A stretch of DNA of 64,000 nucleotides, from positions 10,877 through 74,876 of the IMG/VR virus record IMGVR_UViG_3300033407_000006; one strand, written 5' to 3'. The stretch comes from a virus (taxonomy: Duplodnaviria; Caudoviricetes). The position numbers were made by a program, and so were the translations under genes. Under the pieces are notes generated by a model. The model had not been told where the DNA came from. It saw nothing but the letters and a program-made list of their open reading frames with translations, and made no database searches. Below are positions 9,533 to 46,176 of this stretch, one piece after another; the stretch's first letter is position 1, and each line of letters starts with the position of its first letter.

Positions 9533-9826
9533 TTATTCCGACAGCGCCTTAATTCTTTCCCGCACAAACGTCAGCGGCGGCAGGATTATCTTCACGCCCG
9601 CCTCCATGGCCTCACGGGGGTCGTCCAGCCCTGCGGCAATTCGCACCGCCCAGGCCATGTCTTCGGTGCCGTAGTGGCGGTAGGCAATCAGCTCGGGGCG
9701 CAACACCTCATCGGGCTGGATTTCTCGTTCGCGCCAGCCCACGGCCCCGGCCCGGATCTCCCGGTAAAGAGTCGCCCGCTTCAGGTCGTCGGCAATGTTG
9801 TGGGGGGAGAGTCTCGACAGGGCCAT
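9533..9826 (-). CDS. Baseplate wedge protein (P1 gp26 / T4 gp53-like)
   Basis: RPELIAYRHYGTEDMAWAV...LDDP...G..I.LP, LysM-like pattern. Confidence 0.65.
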   Translation of the reverse strand: MALSRLSPHNIADDLKRATLYREIRAGAVGWREREIQPDEVLRPELIAYRHYGTEDMAWAVRIAAGLDDPREAMEAGVKIILPPLTFVRERIKALSE

Positions 9827-9828
9827 GG

Positions 9829-10032
9829 CTATTTCGCCTTTCCAGATGCGACGCGGGCACAGTAGCGGCCAAGAAGAAACAGGCACCAATAGAGAACTGT
9901 CACCGTCACAGCAAAGGGCCAAACCATCCATTCTGAAAGAAAAAATTTCCAGACGTATGCCGCGCCCCATGCCAAAGCGACACATGCGGCAATCACCGCC
10001 ATAAACCTGAAGAACGCTCCGTTTTCCGTCAC
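9829..10032 (-). CDS. Small membrane protein
   Basis: Two hydrophobic segments. Confidence 0.55.
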   Translation of the reverse strand: MTENGAFFRFMAVIAACVALAWGAAYVWKFFLSEWMVWPFAVTVTVLYWCLFLLGRYCARVASGKAK

Positions 10033-10683
10033 CTACTTGCTCCTTTCTTCTATGCCCGCAGCCAATGCGCGGGCCCGTTGTCTCTCGCCTTCTTCCAGCG
10101 CCCGCGCAAACGCGACAGCAGGGTGCAACTCTTCGTCGTCCGGCGTGTCCAGGTAGGTGCAAAACTCATCGATAAAGCGGCGGCTGACCGGCTCCTGCAT
10201 CGCGGCCACGGCGCACATGAGCACGGCGCGGAACCCGCCATTGAAGACGCTCCAGTTGACGTTGTAGACCGTGCGGCCCTTGTCGTCCTGGCGCTTCTCC
10301 ACCTTCGCGCCCTCGCCGCCGATACGGATCGCGTACTGCTGGCAGTCGGAGTGAAGGATCACGTTGTCCAGGTCCGAAAGGGCAAAGTACCAATCCAGTG
10401 CGTCATAGAAGTTGCTTTGGCCGCTGTCGCCTTCCTCTTCGAGCAGGTAGCGGGTGCCGTGGCGGGCGATATGATCAGTCCGCTCTTCGACGAGGACGGC
10501 GAACCCGGCGTCGCGCTTCTGTTTCACTTCGTCAATGAGGGGCTGCTTCCACGTCCCGAACATGCCGGTAATGGGGATCACGTCCGTCACCATGAGCTGT
10601 CCGGCGTCGTAGACGGCGTAGGCCTTGAACTTCTTCACGGACATCAGCGATACGGTCATGATTTTCAGGGTTTTTTCTGCCAC
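10033..10683 (-). CDS. Hypothetical protein
   Basis: 216-aa ORF with GAGG RBS, operon with gp26-like gene. Confidence 0.7.
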   Translation of the reverse strand: MAEKTLKIMTVSLMSVKKFKAYAVYDAGQLMVTDVIPITGMFGTWKQPLIDEVKQKRDAGFAVLVEERTDHIARHGTRYLLEEEGDSGQSNFYDALDWYFALSDLDNVILHSDCQQYAIRIGGEGAKVEKRQDDKGRTVYNVNWSVFNGGFRAVLMCAVAAMQEPVSRRFIDEFCTYLDTPDDEELHPAVAFARALEEGERQRARALAAGIEERSK

Positions 10684-10719: not shown

Positions 10720-10739
10720 GGCGGGCTAAACTATGTTAT
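10720..10739 (+). repeat. Array head site GGCGGGCTAAACTATGTTAT (attI-like, copy 1)
   Basis: Identical 20-mer at 26005-26024, ends in a GTT core. Confidence 0.65.
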
Positions 10740-10942
10740 AAGTCGCTCGTCAATTTGAAGTTGAACGGCCTCTCCGGGGTGTAGTGCTCGCGGATTGAGC
10801 GGTCACGCTCTCGCAGTTGCTCAACGATCCAGGCCTCTGCGAACTTTTCCAGCGTCGGGTAAAAGGTTCGCGTTTTCGTGCTGTCGTTGCCGGTCACGAT
10901 ATAGCCGTTATCAATGCGCTCTATCTGTACGTCAATTTCCAT
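10736..10942 (-). CDS. Cassette ORF, hypothetical
   Basis: Stop TAA inside the GTTATAA core, GGAGG RBS. Confidence 0.7.
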   Translation of the reverse strand: MEIDVQIERIDNGYIVTGNDSTKTRTFYPTLEKFAEAWIVEQLRERDRSIREHYTPERPFNFKLTSDL

Positions 10943-10963
10943 CAGTACCTCCGTTTAGGCGAC

Positions 10964-11066
10964 TCATAACCCGTCGCTGAAGACGACGCGCAATAGCTGT
11001 CGGGTTCGCGTTCGATTCAGTGGTGCGCCGTCGTCGGCGCGGCGCGTCTTACCTTTGTCGTTATGC
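10964..11066 (+). repeat. attC site A1 (103 bp)
   Basis: TCATAAC-N5-GCTGAAGA...TCTTACC-N6-GTTATGC. Confidence 0.8.
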
Positions 11067-11279
11067 GCCAGCATCACCATCCATCAGTCCACAACCAATG
11101 GCGCAATCTTCACAGTGAGGGTTTCCATCACCATCCACAATAGAGTCCTCTTCGCAGTGGCCTGTCGGCTCCTCACATTTGCTGCAAAGCTGCAAAGTTC
11201 CAGGGTAGTTATCTGCGTTCCAATGGGCGTGCTCCTCTTGCGTCATTGCATGTCTGCGTCCGCCTGGCCATGTGTTCAT
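11061..11279 (-). CDS. Cassette ORF, Cys/His-rich
   Basis: CSKC...HC...HCEDC, stop TAA within R' of A1. Confidence 0.65.
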   Translation of the reverse strand: MNTWPGGRRHAMTQEEHAHWNADNYPGTLQLCSKCEEPTGHCEEDSIVDGDGNPHCEDCAIGCGLMDGDAGA

Positions 11280-11315
11280 GGTGTTTCTCCTGTCCGCAAG
11301 ATGTTTAGCTAATTG

Positions 11316-11654
11316 TTATGCGTACAAACATTCACGCCCAGCCATCTCTGCGGAAATCCAGTCTCCATCCATCGCATTTCCATTGATGGCCTTCTCCAGT
11401 TGCCGCAGCGTGTCCCGCAAGGATTTCTCTAAATCGTTTATCCGGTCTTGCTTTATGCTCACAGTACCCTTCAGCTTCACGTTCTCGTCCCGCAGGTCTT
11501 TCAGTTCTGCGGCTATCGTGTCCAAAAAACCAACTGGATCTGCACTTGCCAACAGATTACCGCCGCTTATCATGTCGGCGAGTCTTCCAAAAGCCGCGTC
11601 AATTCTCGCCAGTTTCCCTTTCATGCTTCCCATAGTTTCCTCCAAAATTCGCAT
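11316..11654 (-). CDS. Cassette ORF, coiled-coil hypothetical
   Basis: ATG inside R'' of A2, TAA inside orphan R' at 11315. Confidence 0.65.
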   Translation of the reverse strand: MRILEETMGSMKGKLARIDAAFGRLADMISGGNLLASADPVGFLDTIAAELKDLRDENVKLKGTVSIKQDRINDLEKSLRDTLRQLEKAINGNAMDGDWISAEMAGRECLYA

Positions 11655-11716
11655 AACCAGCGGGTCAACTCGGATTGCGCAAACTGCCGCGCAACCGGTT
11701 ACCCTTGTCGTTATAA
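11651..11716 (+). repeat. attC site A2 (66 bp)
   Basis: GCATAAC-N5-GGTCAACT...GGTTACC-N6-GTTATAA, extra C in L''. Confidence 0.85.
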
Positions 11717-11902
11717 ATCTTTGTGCGAAAGAGTGGCGGCACGTACGTACTCGCTTGGAGTAATTCCTGCCACCACAGCTTTGCGCTCTACCTCATCCCA
11801 CTCTTCAGCCGTCCAGCGGGTTTGCTTAACAACGTCCCGCACAGGTTTGCGGCTGGTCGATCCTTGCGGCCTGCCCCCGCCTCGCCATCCTCCTTTAGGC
11901 AT
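11711..11902 (-). CDS. Ribbon-helix-helix (MobC-like) DNA-binding protein
   Basis: GGWRGGGRP...RWTAEEW..VERKA..AGITPSEYVR. Confidence 0.7.
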   Translation of the reverse strand: MPKGGWRGGGRPQGSTSRKPVRDVVKQTRWTAEEWDEVERKAVVAGITPSEYVRAATLSHKDL

Positions 11903-12128
11903 GGTCGCCCTCCACAAATGAGCATGGTGCATAATCAAGAGGATCTCCACCGAGCATCCCCGGCTTTATGTTCCATCCACAGCGCCAGGGGTCAATCATA
12001 CTTGCCAGCTCCGAGCGCAGTGCGTTCTTTTGCAGGACAAAGCCGGTGAATCGCTGCCGGTATCTGCACCCCGCCGCACATTCGGGCGGGGTGCCGGTAT
12101 TCGTTGGGTCTGCCGGTAGTGGCCTCAT
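11895..12128 (-). CDS. Hypothetical protein
   Basis: ATGA-coupled to the upstream ORF within the promoter cassette. Confidence 0.5.
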   Translation of the reverse strand: MRPLPADPTNTGTPPECAAGCRYRQRFTGFVLQKNALRSELASMIDPWRCGWNIKPGMLGGDPLDYAPCSFVEGDHA

Positions 12129-12313
12129 ACCCACCCCCCAGTTTCTGGGTCATATGCTTGGCGGCCACAAAAAACCGGATCAGGGCTGTGCGAAACGCGC
12201 ACCAACGAAGCAGCACCAACAAGACGGGCAGACTCGAAGCGCAGGTACGCGAGGCCAGCAAGCGGGGTGGAATCAGCGAGGGTGCCATTGATGTGAATTT
12301 CATAAGTTTCCAT
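12125..12313 (-). CDS. Hypothetical protein
   Basis: AGGAG RBS downstream of a sigma70 promoter. Confidence 0.6.
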   Translation of the reverse strand: METYEIHINGTLADSTPLAGLAYLRFESARLVGAASLVRVSHSPDPVFCGRQAYDPETGGWV

Positions 12314-12344
12314 GTTTGTTCTCCTATGTCGTTAAGTTGATTTA

Positions 12345-12373
12345 AATATATTTCAACTTTGTTTTCTTGTCAA
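12345..12373 (-). promoter_or_regulatory. Cassette-internal sigma70 promoter TTGACA-N17-TATATT with overlapping inverted repeat
   Basis: AAGTTGA (12334-12340) / TCAACTT (12352-12358) flank the -10. Confidence 0.75.
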
Positions 12374-12425
12374 TACAAAAAAACAACTAAACTATTAATT
12401 TGCCACGGAAGAGACGCCCAAAGAT

Positions 12426-12483
12426 TTATAACAAGTCAATCAACCGGATTCGCTACGCTCTCCGGTTATTTCAGTCGTTAGAT
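12426..12483 (+). repeat. attC site A3 (58 bp)
   Basis: TTATAAC-N5-AATCAACC-GGATTCGCTACGCTCTCC-GGTTATT-N6-GTTAGAT, textbook architecture. Confidence 0.92.
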
Positions 12484-12500
12484 TCTAAATCTGCGCAAAA

Positions 12501-13295
12501 TCAGACAAAGCACATGCCGCTCGAACAGTATCCGCCCGCATCGAATAGGGTCGGTTCTGCGGTAAAGTCCACCTGGTCCAGCGGTGTGCATGATCGGTGC
12601 AGCCAGGCGCACGGGTCGAACGCCTGCATTTCCCTCTCGAACGCCACCGCTTGAGCAAATTCGTCCGGTGCGTTCTCCTTCAGGTCTTTCCATTCGTCGT
12701 CGGCTTGGTTCGGGCACATCCAGCAACGCGACCTGGGCGGCTTCGGCCACCCCATCTTCTCGACTTCGCGGATTCCGTGGTGCCTCTTCATCGGCACATC
12801 GTGAATCATCGGAAACCGGATAAGCCCTTTTTCCCATTCCGGCCCCGCCATCATTCGCAAAGCCCGGCGCGTTTCGTCCATGCTGAATCCGATCCACATT
12901 TTCACCTTTGAGCGGGTCAAACCGAATGTCTTGCTCAAAAAACTCTGAATGACTCGGTTTTTCCATTTGCTTGAACAAAACCCCGGCATCTTGCCGACGT
13001 TCCCGGTCTCGTCTGTCCATGTTGGCAAAATCATGGTCTTCCCGCTCGGGTCAAGCCAGTTCGGATCTTTTGCATAATGACCGCCCCACTCATCGCAGCA
13101 CACACGATGAATTTCTACCCCTACCCCTGCCAGTGCAGGCAACGTAACGGCGTTAAGGTATTGCCACGTTGTCCCGCATTCCCGACCAGTGTCGGCAATC
13201 ACCGCAAGATCCGGCTTCGGCAGCTTTCCTTGAATTATCAGCGAAGCGATACAGTTGCTTTGCGTCCCGCCTCCGCTGCTAAAAACCTCAACCAT
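12501..13295 (-). CDS. Cassette ORF: PP-loop adenine-nucleotide alpha-hydrolase (PAPS reductase/DndC-like) family protein
   Basis: SSGGGTQS PP-loop, ADTGRE, CSSKWK, RSRCWMCP, terminal CSSGMCFV. Confidence 0.7.
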   Translation of the reverse strand: MVEVFSSGGGTQSNCIASLIIQGKLPKPDLAVIADTGRECGTTWQYLNAVTLPALAGVGVEIHRVCCDEWGGHYAKDPNWLDPSGKTMILPTWTDETGNVGKMPGFCSSKWKNRVIQSFLSKTFGLTRSKVKMWIGFSMDETRRALRMMAGPEWEKGLIRFPMIHDVPMKRHHGIREVEKMGWPKPPRSRCWMCPNQADDEWKDLKENAPDEFAQAVAFEREMQAFDPCAWLHRSCTPLDQVDFTAEPTLFDAGGYCSSGMCFV

Positions 13296-13334
13296 TTAAC
13301 CCCCTATCGGGCTGCGCCCGAGCGCAGATTTAGA

Positions 13335-13392
13335 ACCTAACCCAGCGGTGAAGCGGATTCGCTCCGCTCTCCGCTTACCTCAATCGTTACCT
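13335..13392 (+). repeat. attC site A4 (58 bp)
   Basis: ACCTAAC-N5-GGTGAAGC-GGATTCGCTCCGCTCTCC-GCTTACC-N6-GTTACCT. Confidence 0.88.
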
Positions 13393-13537
13393 TGCAAGTT
13401 CTACATTTCATAGTTGCCTCCAACGCCTCAGACCCCGGCGCACAGGGCTGCCGCCAGGGTCGCCGCTGTCCACCTCAATGGCGATCTGGTCGTAGCTGGG
13501 CCGTATCCCCGCCGCCGCCTCGCCTGGGCTGTCAATT

Positions 13538-13926: not shown

Positions 13927-16407
13927 TCAATCGTTCCCTGCCAAAATCTTTTTGGCCCGCTCCAGCGCCTCGTTTCTCTCCCGGTCGCTGGCCTCTTCAA
14001 CCGGCGTGTAATCGACCAAGTAGAAGAAGCAAACGGTATCGAAAAGGTCCGGGGATTTGATGCCCTGCGAGGCCATTTGATCCTTGGGAAGGATGGAGTA
14101 GCGGCCCTTTTCGTCCATCTTGTAAGGGATTTTGCTGCCCTGCTCCACGATCTTCTTGTTGCGGGGGATATGAATGCGCTGCTGCCTTAAGGCCTCCCTG
14201 GCCTGATACGAGGCGTAGGCCCGCAGGTTCTTGTATCGGCGCTTGTCGGTCTCCGAAAACGGCGGAAGGCCCCAATGGATTGTTTCGCACGGAACGCCCA
14301 GCTCTTCGAGCGTCAGGATGACGGTGCGACCCGGCCCGTCGCCGTCGATTGCAACGGTGATGTTGGGGAAGTCTTGAACCCGCTGATAGATCTCTCGGGC
14401 AAAGGCCAATTCGTCCTTGTCCAGGTATTCGACCGTCTCCACGATATCGACCTTGCGATCCGGGCCGTAGCCGCTCACTTTGGCGATGGACCAAACGGAC
14501 GAATCCCGGAACTTCCCTTCAGCAACGTCTGCGGTCAGAATCCAGCCCCAGGCCTCTTTGTGCTCAATCTGATTGGTCTGCGCATCCTCAAGCCATGATT
14601 TCGGAATGAGAAAGCCGCTCATGTTGTCGGGTAGCCGCCCCAGAACCTTGATCTGGTACTCAGGGCTGTGGTGCCCGCCGTACTCAATCAGCTTCATTTC
14701 GATGAATTCGCGGGTGACAAGCGGACTTTCTTCGGAGTTGAGATTCAACGTCTTGTAAAGACTGGAGTTTTGCCCCCACGCGTCGGCAAAGTGACCGTTT
14801 GCCCGCGTCGGCTGCGAGACCATGATATATCGGTTTCCGGCTTGGGTCAGGGCGCCGCGCAAAACGCCGTGAATGACATCATCCACGCCCGAGGCCTCAT
14901 CCACCACGCACAGGTAATTTTCGTTGTGCTGGCCCGCCAGTGATTCCGGCTTGGACTTCGAGGCGGTACGGGGGATGACGTACCACGAATCTTTCCAGTG
15001 CTTGTTGAAGTACCGCTTTGTTTCCTTGACGAAGTGGCCCCGCTGGTAAGGGTTGATAGCCTCCACGTCGGCGATGACCTCATCCATGTACTTCCATACG
15101 CCCGTGCGGCACTGGTCGATGCTGTTTGCGGTCAATAGGGCGTTGCTCAAGGGGTAAACGCGAAGATGCCAATCGAAGAGCCAAGCGAGCAGAAAGGTCT
15201 TGCCGGTATTATGAAGAACGGTGAAGTCTCCACCAAGAAATTTGCTGTTTCCGTCGAGGATGAAGCCGTAATAGTCACCTTCGCCTAGTGGAGCGCAGCT
15301 TCTTATCCCGAAATTAAGGTTGGGCCGGTTCTTGTTTCTATCTATCGGTTTCCTTCTTTCTACTCGGACAGGTATCTTGTCGATATTTCTGCCTATGTTG
15401 ATCCGCCAATAATCTCCCACCGCTCCGGTGTTGCAGCATTTTTTTCGAGTCTTATTAACTGTAGCATGACAACCAATCGATTTAGCCAGCCACACAATAT
15501 CTCTTGCGAATCTTTCGCTCTTTTGAACAACGTCGAATGCTGTGCCCGCGCTTGCTAAAAACCCATCAGTATCAATAATGCCAGCCAAAAGCTCTAGCCT
15601 GTCTTGGTATGGCGCAAGCAAGTATTTTTTAGGTATGTGCAGTTCATCTGTTAAACCATGTGCTCGAAGAGTTTCGATGAATGGATTGGCCCTCCCTTTT
15701 CCTATCCCAATGTGCCACATCCTGGCTTTGCCGCTCGCCCCCCAATAGGTAAGCCTGTAGCCCTTAGAAACTGCATACCGGCCCCATGCCTCGCTTACTT
15801 CTCTATCTGGTGTCGTTATCGTTGGCGTGTGAATATGTCCATCTCCTAGCCAGAGTCCGAGTATATATGCCGGGATCGGTAGCTCTTCGGGCTCCCAGCC
15901 GAAATCATTTACACTCGCCCTGTAGACAGCATGGCAACGCTTTCTATCGGCTCCCCATTGCAGCCAATCCCTAACCGTCACCTCAGTTTTCTCTCCAGAC
16001 TCTCTGCGGCCTTTTGAGTTTGTTGCGACAAGGCAAAGGATATGACTTTCGTTGAAGACGTGGCTAGACCCGTCGTTGTAGGTGAAGCGATACAGCGCCT
16101 CCCGGCCACGTTTTAGCGCCAAGACGTTTCGCGGCGTACCGTCATCGCCCATAAGGATGTCGCCCACATTCACGCTCTCAACCGGCTTTATCTCGCCGCT
16201 ATGCAGCATGATTTCGGTTCCAAGGCCGAAGCAGCCGTGCCCGGACGCTACCGCAACCTGGGCCCCGTGCTCCTGCGCCAAGCGAATGAAATCCTCCTGC
16301 TGCCAGGACATCCGCTGTCGACAATGGTGATCGACGTAATCCATGAGGTTGTTACGGTAGCGGGCGCAGAAATCGATGTAATCGGGATTGGAAAAGAGGG
16401 TGCTCAT
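13927..16407 (-). CDS. terL: Terminase large subunit (P1 PacB-like) with intein
   Basis: SGHG|TGKT Walker A split by the intein, VVDEASGV Walker B, TADVA nuclease motif. True start ATG 16407 is coupled to the upstream stop. About 484 aa after splicing. Confidence 0.93.
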   Translation of the reverse strand: MSTLFSNPDYIDFCARYRNNLMDYVDHHCRQRMSWQQEDFIRLAQEHGAQVAVASGHGCFGLGTEIMLHSGEIKPVESVNVGDILMGDDGTPRNVLALKRGREALYRFTYNDGSSHVFNESHILCLVATNSKGRRESGEKTEVTVRDWLQWGADRKRCHAVYRASVNDFGWEPEELPIPAYILGLWLGDGHIHTPTITTPDREVSEAWGRYAVSKGYRLTYWGASGKARMWHIGIGKGRANPFIETLRAHGLTDELHIPKKYLLAPYQDRLELLAGIIDTDGFLASAGTAFDVVQKSERFARDIVWLAKSIGCHATVNKTRKKCCNTGAVGDYWRINIGRNIDKIPVRVERRKPIDRNKNRPNLNFGIRSCAPLGEGDYYGFILDGNSKFLGGDFTVLHNTGKTFLLAWLFDWHLRVYPLSNALLTANSIDQCRTGVWKYMDEVIADVEAINPYQRGHFVKETKRYFNKHWKDSWYVIPRTASKSKPESLAGQHNENYLCVVDEASGVDDVIHGVLRGALTQAGNRYIMVSQPTRANGHFADAWGQNSSLYKTLNLNSEESPLVTREFIEMKLIEYGGHHSPEYQIKVLGRLPDNMSGFLIPKSWLEDAQTNQIEHKEAWGWILTADVAEGKFRDSSVWSIAKVSGYGPDRKVDIVETVEYLDKDELAFAREIYQRVQDFPNITVAIDGDGPGRTVILTLEELGVPCETIHWGLPPFSETDKRRYKNLRAYASYQAREALRQQRIHIPRNKKIVEQGSKIPYKMDEKGRYSILPKDQMASQGIKSPDLFDTVCFFYLVDYTPVEEASDRERNEALERAKKILAGND
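15208..16233 (-). mobile_element. Intein with LAGLIDADG homing endonuclease (342 aa)
   Basis: Starts CFGLGTEI, ends VLHN followed by T. LLAGIIDTDG motif. Lower GC than flanks. Confidence 0.93.
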
Positions 16408-16691
16408 AGATGCAGCCAAGGCTTTGCGGCGATATCGGGGATCAACTCCAGAAGCTCCCCTTCGGTTGCGATTGAAGCCTCGAACGATTCTCTTCCGGCA
16501 TGGACGGCAACGCCCCGGCCCCCTTGCCGGTGATGTGCCGGGCAAAGGGGGATTCTCGGGGCGTTGCCGCGCTTTGAGCCACCGCGCCGGATATGGTGAA
16601 TTTCAGCCGGTGACGTGCCGTAGCCGAGGCGGTGACAGGCCATGCAGCCGAACGAGGCGAGTTGCGAATCGGTGAAGTCTGTGTCGGTCAT
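16404..16691 (-). CDS. Ref-like HNH nuclease
   Basis: GCMAC...EIHH...IPLCPAHH...VHAG, like the C-terminal domain of P1 Ref. Confidence 0.75.
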   Translation of the reverse strand: MTDTDFTDSQLASFGCMACHRLGYGTSPAEIHHIRRGGSKRGNAPRIPLCPAHHRQGGRGVAVHAGRESFEASIATEGELLELIPDIAAKPWLHL

Positions 16692-26004: not shown

Positions 26005-26024
26005 GGCGGGCTAAACTATGTTAT
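26005..26024 (+). repeat. Array head site GGCGGGCTAAACTATGTTAT (attI-like, copy 2)
   Basis: Identical to 10720-10739. Confidence 0.65.
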
Positions 26025-26257
26025 GCCTTAAAGCCGTACGATTTACGGCCCCTCCCAAAAGGTCCGGCATTTATCCTCTCCTCCCCTGCTCGCGCTGTCC
26101 ACTTCGCCTTCCAAATTTTCTTCCCAGGCTCGGTATCTTGTGTTCCCTCAATGACATCCCCACCCCAAGCTTTTTCGATAGCCTCGGCTTCGGTGGCTGC
26201 CTCAACGCAACACATTGTTTGGGTGCTTTCGTAGCCTTCCACGTAAAAAATAGGCAT
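26021..26257 (-). CDS. Cassette ORF, hypothetical
   Basis: ATG in R'' of B1, TAA in the head-site core. Confidence 0.65.
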   Translation of the reverse strand: MPIFYVEGYESTQTMCCVEAATEAEAIEKAWGGDVIEGTQDTEPGKKIWKAKWTARAGEERINAGPFGRGRKSYGFKA

Positions 26258-26311
26258 AACCAATCCTTTCAGCGGACTCGCTCCGCTCGCGGCTGAAGTC
26301 AGTTGTTAGGC
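26254..26311 (+). repeat. attC site B1 (58 bp)
   Basis: GCATAAC-N5-CTTTCAGC-GGACTCGCTCCGCTCGCG-GCTGAAG-N6-GTTAGGC. Confidence 0.88.
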
Positions 26312-26634
26312 AGCCCCAACAGTTGCCGAGCCGCCGCAATGTCGGCAGCGGTCACGCCGGTCGGCACGCTCTTGTACTCAAGGTCGCGCTTCAAGCCGTC
26401 CCATGCTTTGTGTAGCGCCATCACGCCTTCATGGTGTTCTTGGCTCAGGTAGCAGCAGCCAGGCGCCGAGAAACCCCCTCCGTCAGCCACCAGCGTTTCG
26501 AGATCAATCCGCTCGCGGTTGTCGAGTTGAGCCCACTTGCGGCCGACCTTCGTCACTGTCACTTCTCGTGGCAGCGCGTGCCGCTGGCTTTGCGGCACCC
26601 ACCAAAGTATTTGCCCTTCCGTCAGTTTTTCCAT
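26299..26634 (-). CDS. Cassette ORF, hypothetical (beta-barrel-like, VTVTKVGRKW)
   Basis: 111 aa between B1 and B2. Confidence 0.7.
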   Translation of the reverse strand: MEKLTEGQILWWVPQSQRHALPREVTVTKVGRKWAQLDNRERIDLETLVADGGGFSAPGCCYLSQEHHEGVMALHKAWDGLKRDLEYKSVPTGVTAADIAAARQLLGLPNN

Positions 26635-26645
26635 TCTCCGATCCC

Positions 26646-26737
26646 TTCTAACTTATCGTTGCAGGCGACCGCCGAACAGCCGCCTATAGCTTCCTCTTGC
26701 GCTCCTGCGCGGCGTCGCCTGAACTCAGACGTTATCT
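26646..26737 (+). repeat. attC site B2 (92 bp)
   Basis: TTCTAAC-N5-GTTGCAGG...CCTGAAC-N6-GTTATCT. Confidence 0.85.
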
Positions 26738-26935
26738 GCTCAGTGCCTCACCGATAGCGGTTACCAAATTACTTTGATCTTGGCTTTTGCACTCAATGTG
26801 TGGCAGCGCATCGGTCAGCATTTTTCTAAGGGTTTCGTTTTCTTCCCTCAACTCATCCGAGCAGGCCCGCGACATCCGCAGGTGCATTTCAATGTCGGTG
26901 ATTTTGTCTACTAACTCTCTTTCTCGTTTGTCCAC
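26732..26935 (-). CDS. Cassette ORF, coiled-coil hypothetical
   Basis: GGAGG RBS with GTG start, stop in R' of B2. Confidence 0.6.
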   Translation of the reverse strand: MDKRERELVDKITDIEMHLRMSRACSDELREENETLRKMLTDALPHIECKSQDQSNLVTAIGEALSR

Positions 26936-26948
26936 TTTTGACCTCCGC

Positions 26949-27013
26949 AGATAACCAATCGTTGCAAGCGGACTCGGCAAACTGCGCCGAGCCCTTGACC
27001 TCAGTCGTTATGC
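26949..27013 (+). repeat. attC site B3 (65 bp)
   Basis: AGATAAC-N5-GTTGCAAG...CTTGACC-N6-GTTATGC. Confidence 0.85.
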
Positions 27014-27276
27014 AACTCGTCACCGCCCCACGGCGCTCCCGACTCCCGCAACGCCAACTTGAGCGGCAGAAGCGTGCATACATCACCGTCGGCCAGGTGG
27101 CCGTTTGCGTCGAGCGTCTGGCAAATTGCGGCGCGCAGCCTTTCAACTTCCGCCGAAAGAATCTCGGCAATATCCACACTGCCGTAACCGCTGCCGGTCA
27201 TGTCGTCATCTTCGTCGGTCGGCCCGGCTATCTCGTAGCAAAGGCGCCTCGCCAAATCTATGCTGCCTCGTTTCAT
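27001..27276 (-). CDS. Cassette ORF, hypothetical
   Basis: GGAGG RBS, ENGHLADGDVCTL-type motif (ANGHLADGDVCTL). Confidence 0.65.
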   Translation of the reverse strand: MKRGSIDLARRLCYEIAGPTDEDDDMTGSGYGSVDIAEILSAEVERLRAAICQTLDANGHLADGDVCTLLPLKLALRESGAPWGGDELHND

Positions 27277-27291
27277 TTCTCAACCTCCGTT

Positions 27292-27359
27292 GCATAACCC
27301 GGCAGTCCACCTGACCTGCCGCATAAAGCCGCGTCAGTCAGGTGACTTTTGCGTTAGGG
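27292..27359 (+). repeat. attC site B4 (68 bp)
   Basis: GCATAAC-N5-AGTCCACC...GGTGACT-N5-GTTAGGG, extra C in L''. Confidence 0.85.
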
Positions 27360-27548
27360 TGCTTCGGGGCGGCTCTGTTTTGCGTACAGCTCCAGCCACG
27401 CAAAAGCCAAACCCGGCGGGCGTCTCCCGCTCGGCCCGTCATCTTCCCAACTCTGCCAAGTGCGGTACGGTGTCCCCGTCAACCTGGCCGCTTCTGCCAT
27501 AGAGAGACCCGACTTCTGCCGGGTCTCTCTCAGTTCCTTGGCAGTCAC
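27354..27548 (-). CDS. Cassette ORF, XRE-family HTH protein
   Basis: ELRETRQKSGLSMAEAARLTGTPYRTWQSWE. Confidence 0.8.
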   Translation of the reverse strand: MTAKELRETRQKSGLSMAEAARLTGTPYRTWQSWEDDGPSGRRPPGLAFAWLELYAKQSRPEAP

Positions 27549-27781
27549 TGGTTGCCATCCGGACGGACGATTTCTGCCCCTTCCTCGACAAGACGGGAGC
27601 AAAGGTCAATACACTCCTGACTTCCTACTCCATAGCCAATTTTTCCGCGCAGTTCGTCGGGGACAGGACAGGCCGCGACCCCTTCGTCACTCATTGGATC
27701 GCCGTCGTAACTTTTGACCTGTTCCGCATTCGCCGGCCAGCAGAATTGTCCGTCATTCATTACTACGTATTTGCTTTTCAT
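27545..27781 (-). CDS. Cassette ORF, hypothetical, coupled to the HTH gene
   Basis: AAGGAG RBS downstream of a promoter. Confidence 0.65.
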   Translation of the reverse strand: MKSKYVVMNDGQFCWPANAEQVKSYDGDPMSDEGVAACPVPDELRGKIGYGVGSQECIDLCSRLVEEGAEIVRPDGNQ

Positions 27782-27830
27782 GGCTGTACTCCTTCTGGTT
27801 TGGGTTATTTGTTCCGCTTTCTTGATTCTA

Positions 27831-27880
27831 ATTATATGCACATTGTGACTGATTGCAAGTAAAATAATTCACTTTGTGCA
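27831..27880 (-). promoter_or_regulatory. Cassette-internal promoter TTGCAA-N16-TATAAT with operator-like inverted repeat
   Basis: TGCACATTGTGA (27837) / TCACTTTGTGCA (ending 27880). Confidence 0.7.
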
Positions 27881-27905
27881 TTTTTATTTGAGCGGCGCAA
27901 AATCA

Positions 27906-27974
27906 CCCTAACCAGTCGGTCAATCGGACCGTCGCGAAAGTGCCGCGCCGATCCGCTTACCTTTATCGTTAGTT
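27906..27974 (+). repeat. attC site B5 (69 bp)
   Basis: CCCTAAC-N5-GGTCAATC...GCTTACC-N6-GTTAGTT. Confidence 0.85.
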
Positions 27975-28220
27975 TGCTTGTGGCACTTCCAGCGGCCCGT
28001 ACCACTTCCCACCGATCTTATTGACACGCTCGCGGTAGCCGGTAAGCGGGCGGCACCCAACAAAACCACACGCGGCTTTAATGACTTGGTAAATTTCTAC
28101 GCTGTTCGCCCTTCCTCCGCCGTCATCGTTCCAATAAAAACCTTCGGCGGTCGGTTCCTCTTTCGACCAGCGCAAACTAACACCAGTTTCGAGCGGACGG
28201 TTTTCACTTTCCGTTTCCAT
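27969..28220 (-). CDS. Cassette ORF, hypothetical (WSKEEPTAEGFYW...WYGPLE.P)
   Basis: Starts inside the B6 stem, stops in R' of B5. Confidence 0.65.
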   Translation of the reverse strand: METESENRPLETGVSLRWSKEEPTAEGFYWNDDGGGRANSVEIYQVIKAACGFVGCRPLTGYRERVNKIGGKWYGPLEVPQAN

Positions 28221-28260
28221 GGGTTGCGGCCTCCTCCGCCGCTCAAACTAAACGTTAGGC
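28175..28260 (+). repeat. attC site B6 (86 bp)
   Basis: AACTAAC-N5-TTTCGAGC...GCTCAAA-N6-GTTAGGC, extra C in L''. Confidence 0.9.
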
Positions 28261-46013: not shown

Positions 46014-46078
46014 GGCGATTGAAAACATTGCGCTTTCCCGGCTACGGCCCCGGTTTCTCTTCTTGTATCTTTTTTGTG

Positions 46079-46107
46079 TTGACAGATATAGGATGTGAGA
46101 CTAGAGT
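46079..46107 (+). promoter_or_regulatory. Sigma70-type promoter TTGACA-N17-TAGAGT
   Basis: Twin of 683-711. Confidence 0.7.
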
Positions 46108-46176
46108 TTCACCATGAAAGGCGGCGCGGGGCTGCCGGGGCGGACAAGCCGACTCAGGGAGAGGGAGGAAATAGTC

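Follow-up and report, generated by a model that had tools for sequence, protein, structure and literature searches.

A probable integrase-less gene cassette array with reversed coding polarity in a tailed-phage genome

A 64,000-nt stretch of a Caudoviricetes genome (IMG/VR virus record IMGVR_UViG_3300033407_000006; bases 10877-74876 of a full record of 74,876 bp, hereafter the window, whose numbering is used throughout) carries at positions 10720-13392 a group of four attC recombination sites that we call array A. We consider it highly probable that array A is an integron-type cassette array devoid of an integrase, i.e., a cluster of attC sites lacking integron integrases (CALIN), which was built inside a phage operon and comprises an attI-like head and four cassettes with their genes on the attC bottom strand. 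The same 20-nt head opens a second array in this phage, array B (Table 1).

attC sites and cassette units

The four attC sites of array A (A1-A4) had been proposed from the sequence alone, and a covariance model (R1) trained solely on the ten attC sites of arrays A and B matches each of them at exactly the predicted coordinates, on the plus strand and at 55-60 bits. Run over the whole 74,876-bp phage at E≤10, R1 returns these ten sites (four in array A, six in array B), all on the plus strand, and nothing else. Read on that strand, the sites share the layout RYYYAAC, 5 nt, an L'' box with one extra base, a loop, L', 6 nt and GTTRRRY; TAAC and GTTA are invariant in the ten-site alignment, and the L-box helix is 89% paired, with compensatory (both-side) changes in 6 of its 10 pairs. 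As a control, the 3' partners were shifted by 1-3 columns, which lowers pairing to 23-44% of cells, and none of 500 shuffles reached the observed covariation. The strand asymmetry, made up of the extra L'' base (C in five sites, G in four, T in one) and the unequal 5/6-nt central spacer, falls on the plus strand in all ten sites, and folding of the A2 bottom strand yields a bulged hairpin (z -2.2).

The phage-trained model was also applied to known attC sites. In the class-1 integron of a Salmonella plasmid it detects attC_aadA1 (46.5 bits, E 4e-10) and attC_dfrA1 (23.7 bits), both on the strand coding for dfrA1 and aadA1, with the reverse strand of attC_aadA1 reaching only 12.4 bits. In two IntI-linked integrons of a metagenome-assembled genome (MAG) whose true integron integrases number three (371-435 bits, cut-off 265), R1 matches lie just past intI on the opposite strand, and the cassette open reading frames (ORFs) are co-oriented with them. 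Tetrasphaera phage TJE1, whose CALIN is published, and Shewanella prophage M16-3, with an integron and a CALIN, likewise have their matches on the gene strand. Because R1 cross-recognizes established attC sites, the phage elements are, as judged from architecture and profile, attC sites as initially annotated, and the R1 strand corresponds to the canonical top strand. With four same-strand sites within 2.4 kb and no intI in the 74.9-kb record, array A is a CALIN in the IntegronFinder sense.

Sites A3 and A4 had been called near-identical, which goes too far: they are 75% identical over 52 nt and their stems differ by compensatory changes, the nearly identical portion being a common central loop, GGATTCGCT[A/C]CGCTCTCC. 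The proposed kinship with B1 is borne out (same family, 73%), as is an attC family common to both arrays, which recurs in viral contigs (surveyed loci L180, L149 and L190).

In the model that we favor, each cassette would extend from the TT after one G↓TT crossover (the arrow marking the crossover point) to the G of the next, with its attC hairpin at the plus-strand 3' end; the top and the recombinogenic bottom strand of attC would be the plus and the minus strand, respectively. The cassette ends bear the imprint of such units. Across both arrays, R'' and the left-end R' of the same cassette show a perfect run of 8-14 nt in 8 of the ten cassettes, and the remaining two match at 11/12 and 19/20 positions; R'' matches the adjacent R' over only 4-6 nt. 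In array A, the bases past the head crossover match the reverse complement of the A1 R'' at 11/12 positions, the ends of cassette 3 are perfectly complementary over 14 nt (17/20), and those of cassette 4 match at 19/20. This chained end complementarity is the predicted signature of cassettes circularizing at G↓TT. The array further has a half-site at its left and a full hairpin at its right, as expected from repeated insertion at an attI-type site with the plus strand as top strand, in agreement with the bulge geometry.

The limits of a single unit can be seen in another viral contig (L220), which has exactly one array-B cassette (27354-27968) in common with this phage. The similarity starts at GTTAGGG (27353), spans a helix-turn-helix (HTH) gene, the promoter and attC B5, and stops at CGTTAG (27968-27973), with none outside. 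As this homology is bounded at G↓TT, the mobile unit consists of the gene or genes together with the attC beside their 5' end, as the top-strand model predicts. The L220 copy (L220:6744-7476) is itself a solitary cassette that resembles an attG-type insertion, apparently placed at a plain GTT without an attI-like head or upstream attC; its middle gene has been replaced, and the HTH gene, promoter and attC are conserved. The array-B cassette, in which a small ORF precedes the HTH gene, is similar in arrangement to cassette 3 of array A, and both look like self-regulated modules, possibly of toxin-antitoxin-like character.

Regarding the contents of array A, the promoter of cassette 3 is near-consensus sigma-70 and overlaps a palindrome, AAGTTGA...TCAACTT (12314-12425, minus strand). 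The protein of cassette 4, resembling a 3'-phosphoadenosine 5'-phosphosulfate (PAPS) reductase, has 607 homologs, the top match being KI809_18830 from Geobacter pelophilus at 64% identity; this match is the sole hint of the link to Desulfobacterota chromosomal integrons that had been suggested. The interior of cassette 2 contains an orphan GTTATGCG at 11315, possibly left over from an attC that was lost. Most cassette genes are orphans, and all that other contigs share with array A are attC copies and the cassette-4 gene.

Table 1. Features of the two arrays and of the flanks of array A (window coordinates; RBS, ribosome-binding site)
Feature	Position	Strand	Description
Head of array A	10720-10741	+	attI-like half-site GGCGGGCTAAACTATG↓TTATAA, without hairpin partner
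Cassette 1	10736-11060		contains attC A1
ORF of cassette 1	10736-10942	-	68 aa; GGAGG RBS; without family match
attC A1	10964-11066	+	103 nt; R1 54.9 bits; box geometry
Cassette 2	11061-11710		contains attC A2
ORF of cassette 2	11061-11279	-	72 aa; Cys-rich
ORF of cassette 2	11316-11633	-	105 aa; coiled coil
attC A2	11651-11716	+	66 nt; R1 55.9 bits
Cassette 3	11711-12477		contains attC A3
ORF of cassette 3	11711-11902	-	63 aa; NikA/MobA-like ribbon-helix-helix
ORF of cassette 3	11895-12128	-	77 aa
ORF of cassette 3	12125-12313	-	62 aa
Promoter of cassette 3	12373-12345	-	TTGACA-17-TATATT
attC A3	12426-12483	+	58 nt; R1 60.0 bits; family of A4 and B1
Cassette 4	12478-13386		contains attC A4
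ORF of cassette 4	12501-13295	-	264 aa; PAPS-reductase-like (phrog_424)
attC A4	13335-13392	+	58 nt; R1 59.1 bits; last in array A, phage DNA after
Array B	26005-28260	+	same 20-nt head, six attC; every gene on minus strand
attC sites of array B	26254-26311, 26646-26737, 26949-27013, 27292-27359, 27906-27974, 28175-28260	+	
Baseplate-wedge-like gene	9533-10162		left flank of array A
phrog_1837 gene	10033-10683		left flank of array A
Two small ORFs			right flank of array A
Large terminase	13927-16545	-	872 aa; intein-containing; right flank of array A

Gene polarity, array heads and related viral loci

Every credible cassette gene of arrays A and B, credibility being taken from an RBS or a family match, lies on the minus strand and hence on the attC bottom strand. 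A GGAG-type RBS is situated between the start codon of each gene and the R'' of the attC belonging to it, several genes terminate in the TTA of the preceding G↓TTA, and the family matches (phrog_424 and the NikA/MobA-like ribbon-helix-helix protein in array A; Phage_ProQ_C_like and HTH_31 in array B) are all on that strand. The integron arrangement in which ORFs occupy the attC top strand and are expressed from the cassette promoter Pc is not found in this phage, and the controls (class-1 integron, MAG integrons, TJE1 and M16-3) have canonical polarity, the opposite of what is seen here. Lying on the bottom strand, the cassette genes run in the direction of the phage's own genes and would be read through from phage promoters, with cassette 3 adding a promoter of its own. 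An attempt to call gene polarity from GC content at third minus first codon positions (GC3 minus GC1) was abandoned after failing on the controls.

The two arrays begin alike. A 20-mer, GGCGGGCTAAACTATGTTAT, opens both at their plus-strand 5' ends (10720 and 26005) and occurs only these two times in the window, with 0 occurrences expected by chance, and the DNA to the left of the copies is unrelated. In array A the crossover point falls between G10735 and T10736, and a CTA is found at -9/-10 from the G, so that head position, G↓TT and CTA are comparable to those of attI1 (CCCTAAAACAAAG↓TTA) and of the Shewanella attI (CACTAATAAAATG↓TTA), in both of which CTA lies at -10. Among 29 arrays of viral contigs with a cognate left end of at least 9 nt, 14 candidate heads show a CTA, often as part of TG..G.YCTA, at 9-10 nt before G↓TT, as opposed to 0 of 225 attC 3' ends; the head in the window conforms to this pattern. 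From these features the array A head is classed as a putative attI-like half-site. The attI of a bacterial MAG integron (L022) has no shared head motif. A second head type, distinct from the CTA type of the window, consists of a CGTTAACG palindrome followed by GTCGA..A.AC.CG↓TTAGG and is found in four loci (L104, L190, L131 and L198). Finally, a palindromic ACCTTGCAAG follows the last array A crossover (G↓TTACCTTGCAAG, window 13386-13400) and is also present ~20 nt upstream of the L186 and L216 heads, a recurrence near heads that may be due to chance.

Related arrays are not confined to this phage. A strict pattern for its attC type matched at least 120 IMG/VR contigs, where by our estimate ~0.2 would be expected by chance, and R1 gave 259 + 110 matches (369) in the pattern-matched contigs, always on one strand per locus. 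Near-copies of A2, A4, B3 and B5 occur in other viral contigs with different cargo; copies of A2 at 83-84% identity are found in L129, L118 and L154, and L180:1152-1208 matches the A4 core with 97% identity over 31 nt. The three surveyed loci with true IntI genes have the canonical layout, and for one of them 9 of 13 spacers have their longest ORF called sense to attC, no spacer being called antisense. Such longest-ORF polarity calls are noisy (one TJE1 spacer was miscalled) and indicate a trend only. For the integrase-less loci, the longest ORF of each polarity per spacer was searched against Pfam, and matches were obtained for 17 of 104 antisense ORFs and for 0 of 90 sense ORFs. The antisense matches include five N6_N4 methylases, three Mom proteins, C5, D12 and MT-A70 methylases, Lar and Acb2/Tad1, together with RNA ligase, radical SAM, DUF1643 and DUF4406. 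A spacer homology test requiring a diverged homolog points the same way, with 21 spacers antisense-only and 3 sense-only. The survey shows a large class of predicted backwards arrays, and not their share among all phage arrays.

The cassette-4 gene links array A to a further array. One locus (L104, IMGVR_UViG_3300049841_000025), the sole one among the 80 IMG/VR loci with this gene, has eight R1 matches of 33-46 bits, all antisense to the genes, along with cognate end matches of 10-12 nt and an attI-like head. Homologs of cassette 4 adjoin antisense attC sites in L104, L012, L003 and L006, and three prophage-like MAG loci with the gene have weaker R1 matches of the same polarity. In 79 of the 80 IMG/VR loci (L027-L106) the PAPS-reductase-like gene is an ordinary, hairpin-free phage gene, and it is a cassette in one, in addition to this phage; such a gene/cassette pair could show how genes become cassettes. 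A candidate in Polaribacter phage P12002L, one R1 match of 15.6 bits antisense to two methylase genes, was too weak to count.

Genomic setting and alternative explanations

Array A had been placed between morphogenesis genes and the terminase, and this location is confirmed by the baseplate-wedge-like and phrog_1837 genes on its left and the intein-bearing large terminase on its right; nearly all genes around the array are on the minus strand. The record ends in 127-bp direct terminal repeats. Within the terminase, a Hint domain (~aa 105-193) and a LAGLIDADG homing endonuclease (~aa 317-369) form the intein, with terminase-like parts on either side. A 22-nt motif, GAATTTATCAACCCATTCACTA, has four intergenic copies with ≤2 mismatches (9514, 13904, 19309 and 22506, plus-strand coordinates), which lie ~35-60 nt upstream of minus-strand gene starts; the functional strand is probably the minus strand and the motif probably a phage promoter or regulator site, and one copy is upstream of the operon holding array A. 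A 58-nt repeat, 86% identical between positions 672-729 and 46068-46125 (45 kb apart), contains TTGACA, ends at ATG and looks like a duplicated promoter/leader region.

No intI lies beside the array, which is accordingly not a complete integron, and the whole record has zero matches to tyrosine recombinases (PF00589, E≤1), to the integron integrase model TIGR02249, to serine recombinases (PF00239) and to Y1 transposases (PF01797). With all three recombinase families searched for missing from the phage, the simplest inference is a host integron integrase acting in trans, which would insert cassettes at the head and excise them between attC sites. The alternative that survives best is that a tyrosine recombinase of the phage world, lost here or borrowed from a co-resident phage, moves the cassettes in place of a bacterial integron integrase, a scenario that we consider unlikely. 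It is suggested by ~320-aa Xer-like tyrosine recombinase genes in two surveyed loci (L124:3319-4272 and L127:7913-8884, both on the minus strand and 31% identical) and by a fragment in a third (L138:857-1306, minus strand). The first two are separated by 220-240 nt from the head of a backwards attC array, where intI sits in integrons, and like intI are divergent from the attC top strand; their products score only 28-35 bits on TIGR02249 (cut-off 265) and by that model are not integron integrases. Such genes are seen, however, in only 3 of ~120 loci, their N-termini resemble those of ordinary lysogeny integrases, whose genes are often found beside accessory regions, and this phage is without any tyrosine recombinase. 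Moreover, the sites of this phage share their type with those of class-1 integrons, and phage attC sites have been shown to work with IntI1 (PMC9892861).

It is considerably less probable that the arrays are dead cargo, that is, pieces of bacterial chromosomal integrons gained by illegitimate recombination and without ongoing exchange. Base composition speaks for it to a degree, since GC content is 0.537 in array A and 0.556 in array B versus 0.587 in the genome, and GC3 is 0.48-0.71 in cassette ORFs versus 0.72-0.81 in large core genes. The initial annotation had the direction of this difference right and its extent overstated in calling the cassettes AT-rich: among 2.5-kb windows of the phage (mean 0.587, sd 0.021; 1st percentile 0.537, 5th percentile 0.553) the arrays sit at about the 1st and 5th percentiles only. 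Lower GC is compatible with a foreign origin and not decisive. A relic might also be expected from the missing integrase and from the prevalence of orphans among the cassette genes. It would leave unexplained, however, why an identical head stands on two separate arrays amid unrelated flanking DNA, why all genes run with the phage operons, whereas arrays beside true integrases have sense genes, why the cargo is typical of phages (in this phage phrog_424 and Phage_ProQ_C_like, in sister arrays methylases, Mom, Lar and Acb2/Tad1), and why the one cassette common to another viral contig ends exactly at the crossover points. As for intergenic regulatory or terminator-like phage repeats, a notion prompted by the intergenic position and folding of the hairpins and by one terminator-like match overlapping A1, the strand specificity of R1 and its cross-recognition of true attC sites, the chained cassette ends with homology breakpoints exactly at G↓TT, the lack of T tracts and the absence of any Rfam family match in the array region make it extremely improbable.

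Several points nevertheless weigh against array A being an integron-type cassette array. No recombination event has been observed for the arrays, the action of a host integrase in trans is something that we infer, and the reasons given below for the reversed polarity are proposals. The head has no exact match in viral (18-mer) or in metagenome or genome (19-mer) collections and is therefore not tied to any known integrase. Arrays of canonical polarity exist in phages too (TJE1, M16-3), and the survey pattern, being derived from the attC type of this phage, may favor same-polarity arrays. Lastly, no close relative with an empty or different array was found in IMG/VR or among GenBank phages, where searches with a left-flank protein, an 811-aa protein and the C-terminal half of the terminase yielded no close relatives for an empty-site comparison.

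If array A is an integron-type array, its reversed polarity might keep phage cassettes expressed only in phage platforms, and the recombinogenic strand would be the non-template strand of transcription, which may favor its folding. Integrons are bacterial gene-capture devices, and recent work has shown that they store anti-phage defense cassettes. We tentatively propose, as a possibility somewhat short of even, that phages maintain integron-like platforms of their own, with an attI-like pad and bottom-strand cassette genes, which would give access to a counter-defense-rich, phage-expressed pool using the bacterial integron integrase and kept apart by polarity. Array A would then be one member among at least 120 IMG/VR contigs with the same attC type, and a phage cassette in a bacterial integron, or a bacterial cassette at a phage head, would be antisense and silent, so that reversed polarity would explain a functional separation of the phage and bacterial cassette pools. 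Were phages to run such a mirror-image device with a host enzyme for counter-defense genes, one recombination system would serve phages and bacteria alike in their arms race. The ten attC sites and the 20-nt head are defined, testable substrates, and the existence of the PAPS-reductase-like gene in two states, ordinary phage gene and cassette, bears on the question of cassette origin.

Comparison with known systems

Clusters of attC sites in phages are already published. A survey of 10,705 phage genomes found 17 CALINs, including an attI-headed one in M16-3, showed that phage attC sites recombine with IntI1 and attI1, and reported DNA methyltransferases among the cargo (Qi et al. 2023, Front Microbiol, PMC9892861). 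Gene polarity relative to attC is not treated there, and in the literature we found no description of backwards (reversed-polarity) arrays, shared heads or counter-defense cargo in phage arrays; it is the reversed polarity and the shared head for which no published description was found. Like those CALINs, the arrays of this phage are attC arrays within a phage genome without intI; they differ in being two, with ten sites and the same head on both.

In TJE1 the genes lie on the attC top strand, whereas in this phage all are on the bottom strand. Prophage M16-3 harbors a complete integron together with a CALIN, each of which begins with a Shewanella-type attI (PMC9892861). It resembles our phage in that an attI-type half-site opens a phage-borne CALIN between tail and terminase genes, with CTA ~10 nt before G↓TT in both, and differs in having its own intI and an attI that matches the known attI of its host, where this phage has no integrase and an orphan head. 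The cassette genes of M16-3 are moreover sense to attC and antisense to the neighboring phage genes, whereas those described here run with the phage genes. IntI can also place cassettes outside integrons at non-classical attG sites (bioRxiv 10.1101/2022.09.11.507474); the solitary L220 cassette at a plain GTT is alike, and arrays A and B instead use a defined, repeated attI-like head.

With sedentary and mobile integrons, the arrays have in common the attC box geometry, the extra L'' base, the asymmetric 5/6-nt spacers and the G↓TT crossover, as well as first cassette bases complementary to the cassette's own R'' and, in some cassettes, a promoter of their own, like toxin-antitoxin cassettes. 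Reversed cassettes are a minority in bacterial arrays. In this phage, by comparison with integrons, intI and Pc are missing, coding polarity is reversed for all cassettes, and any new cassette would join the array at its transcriptional 3' end.

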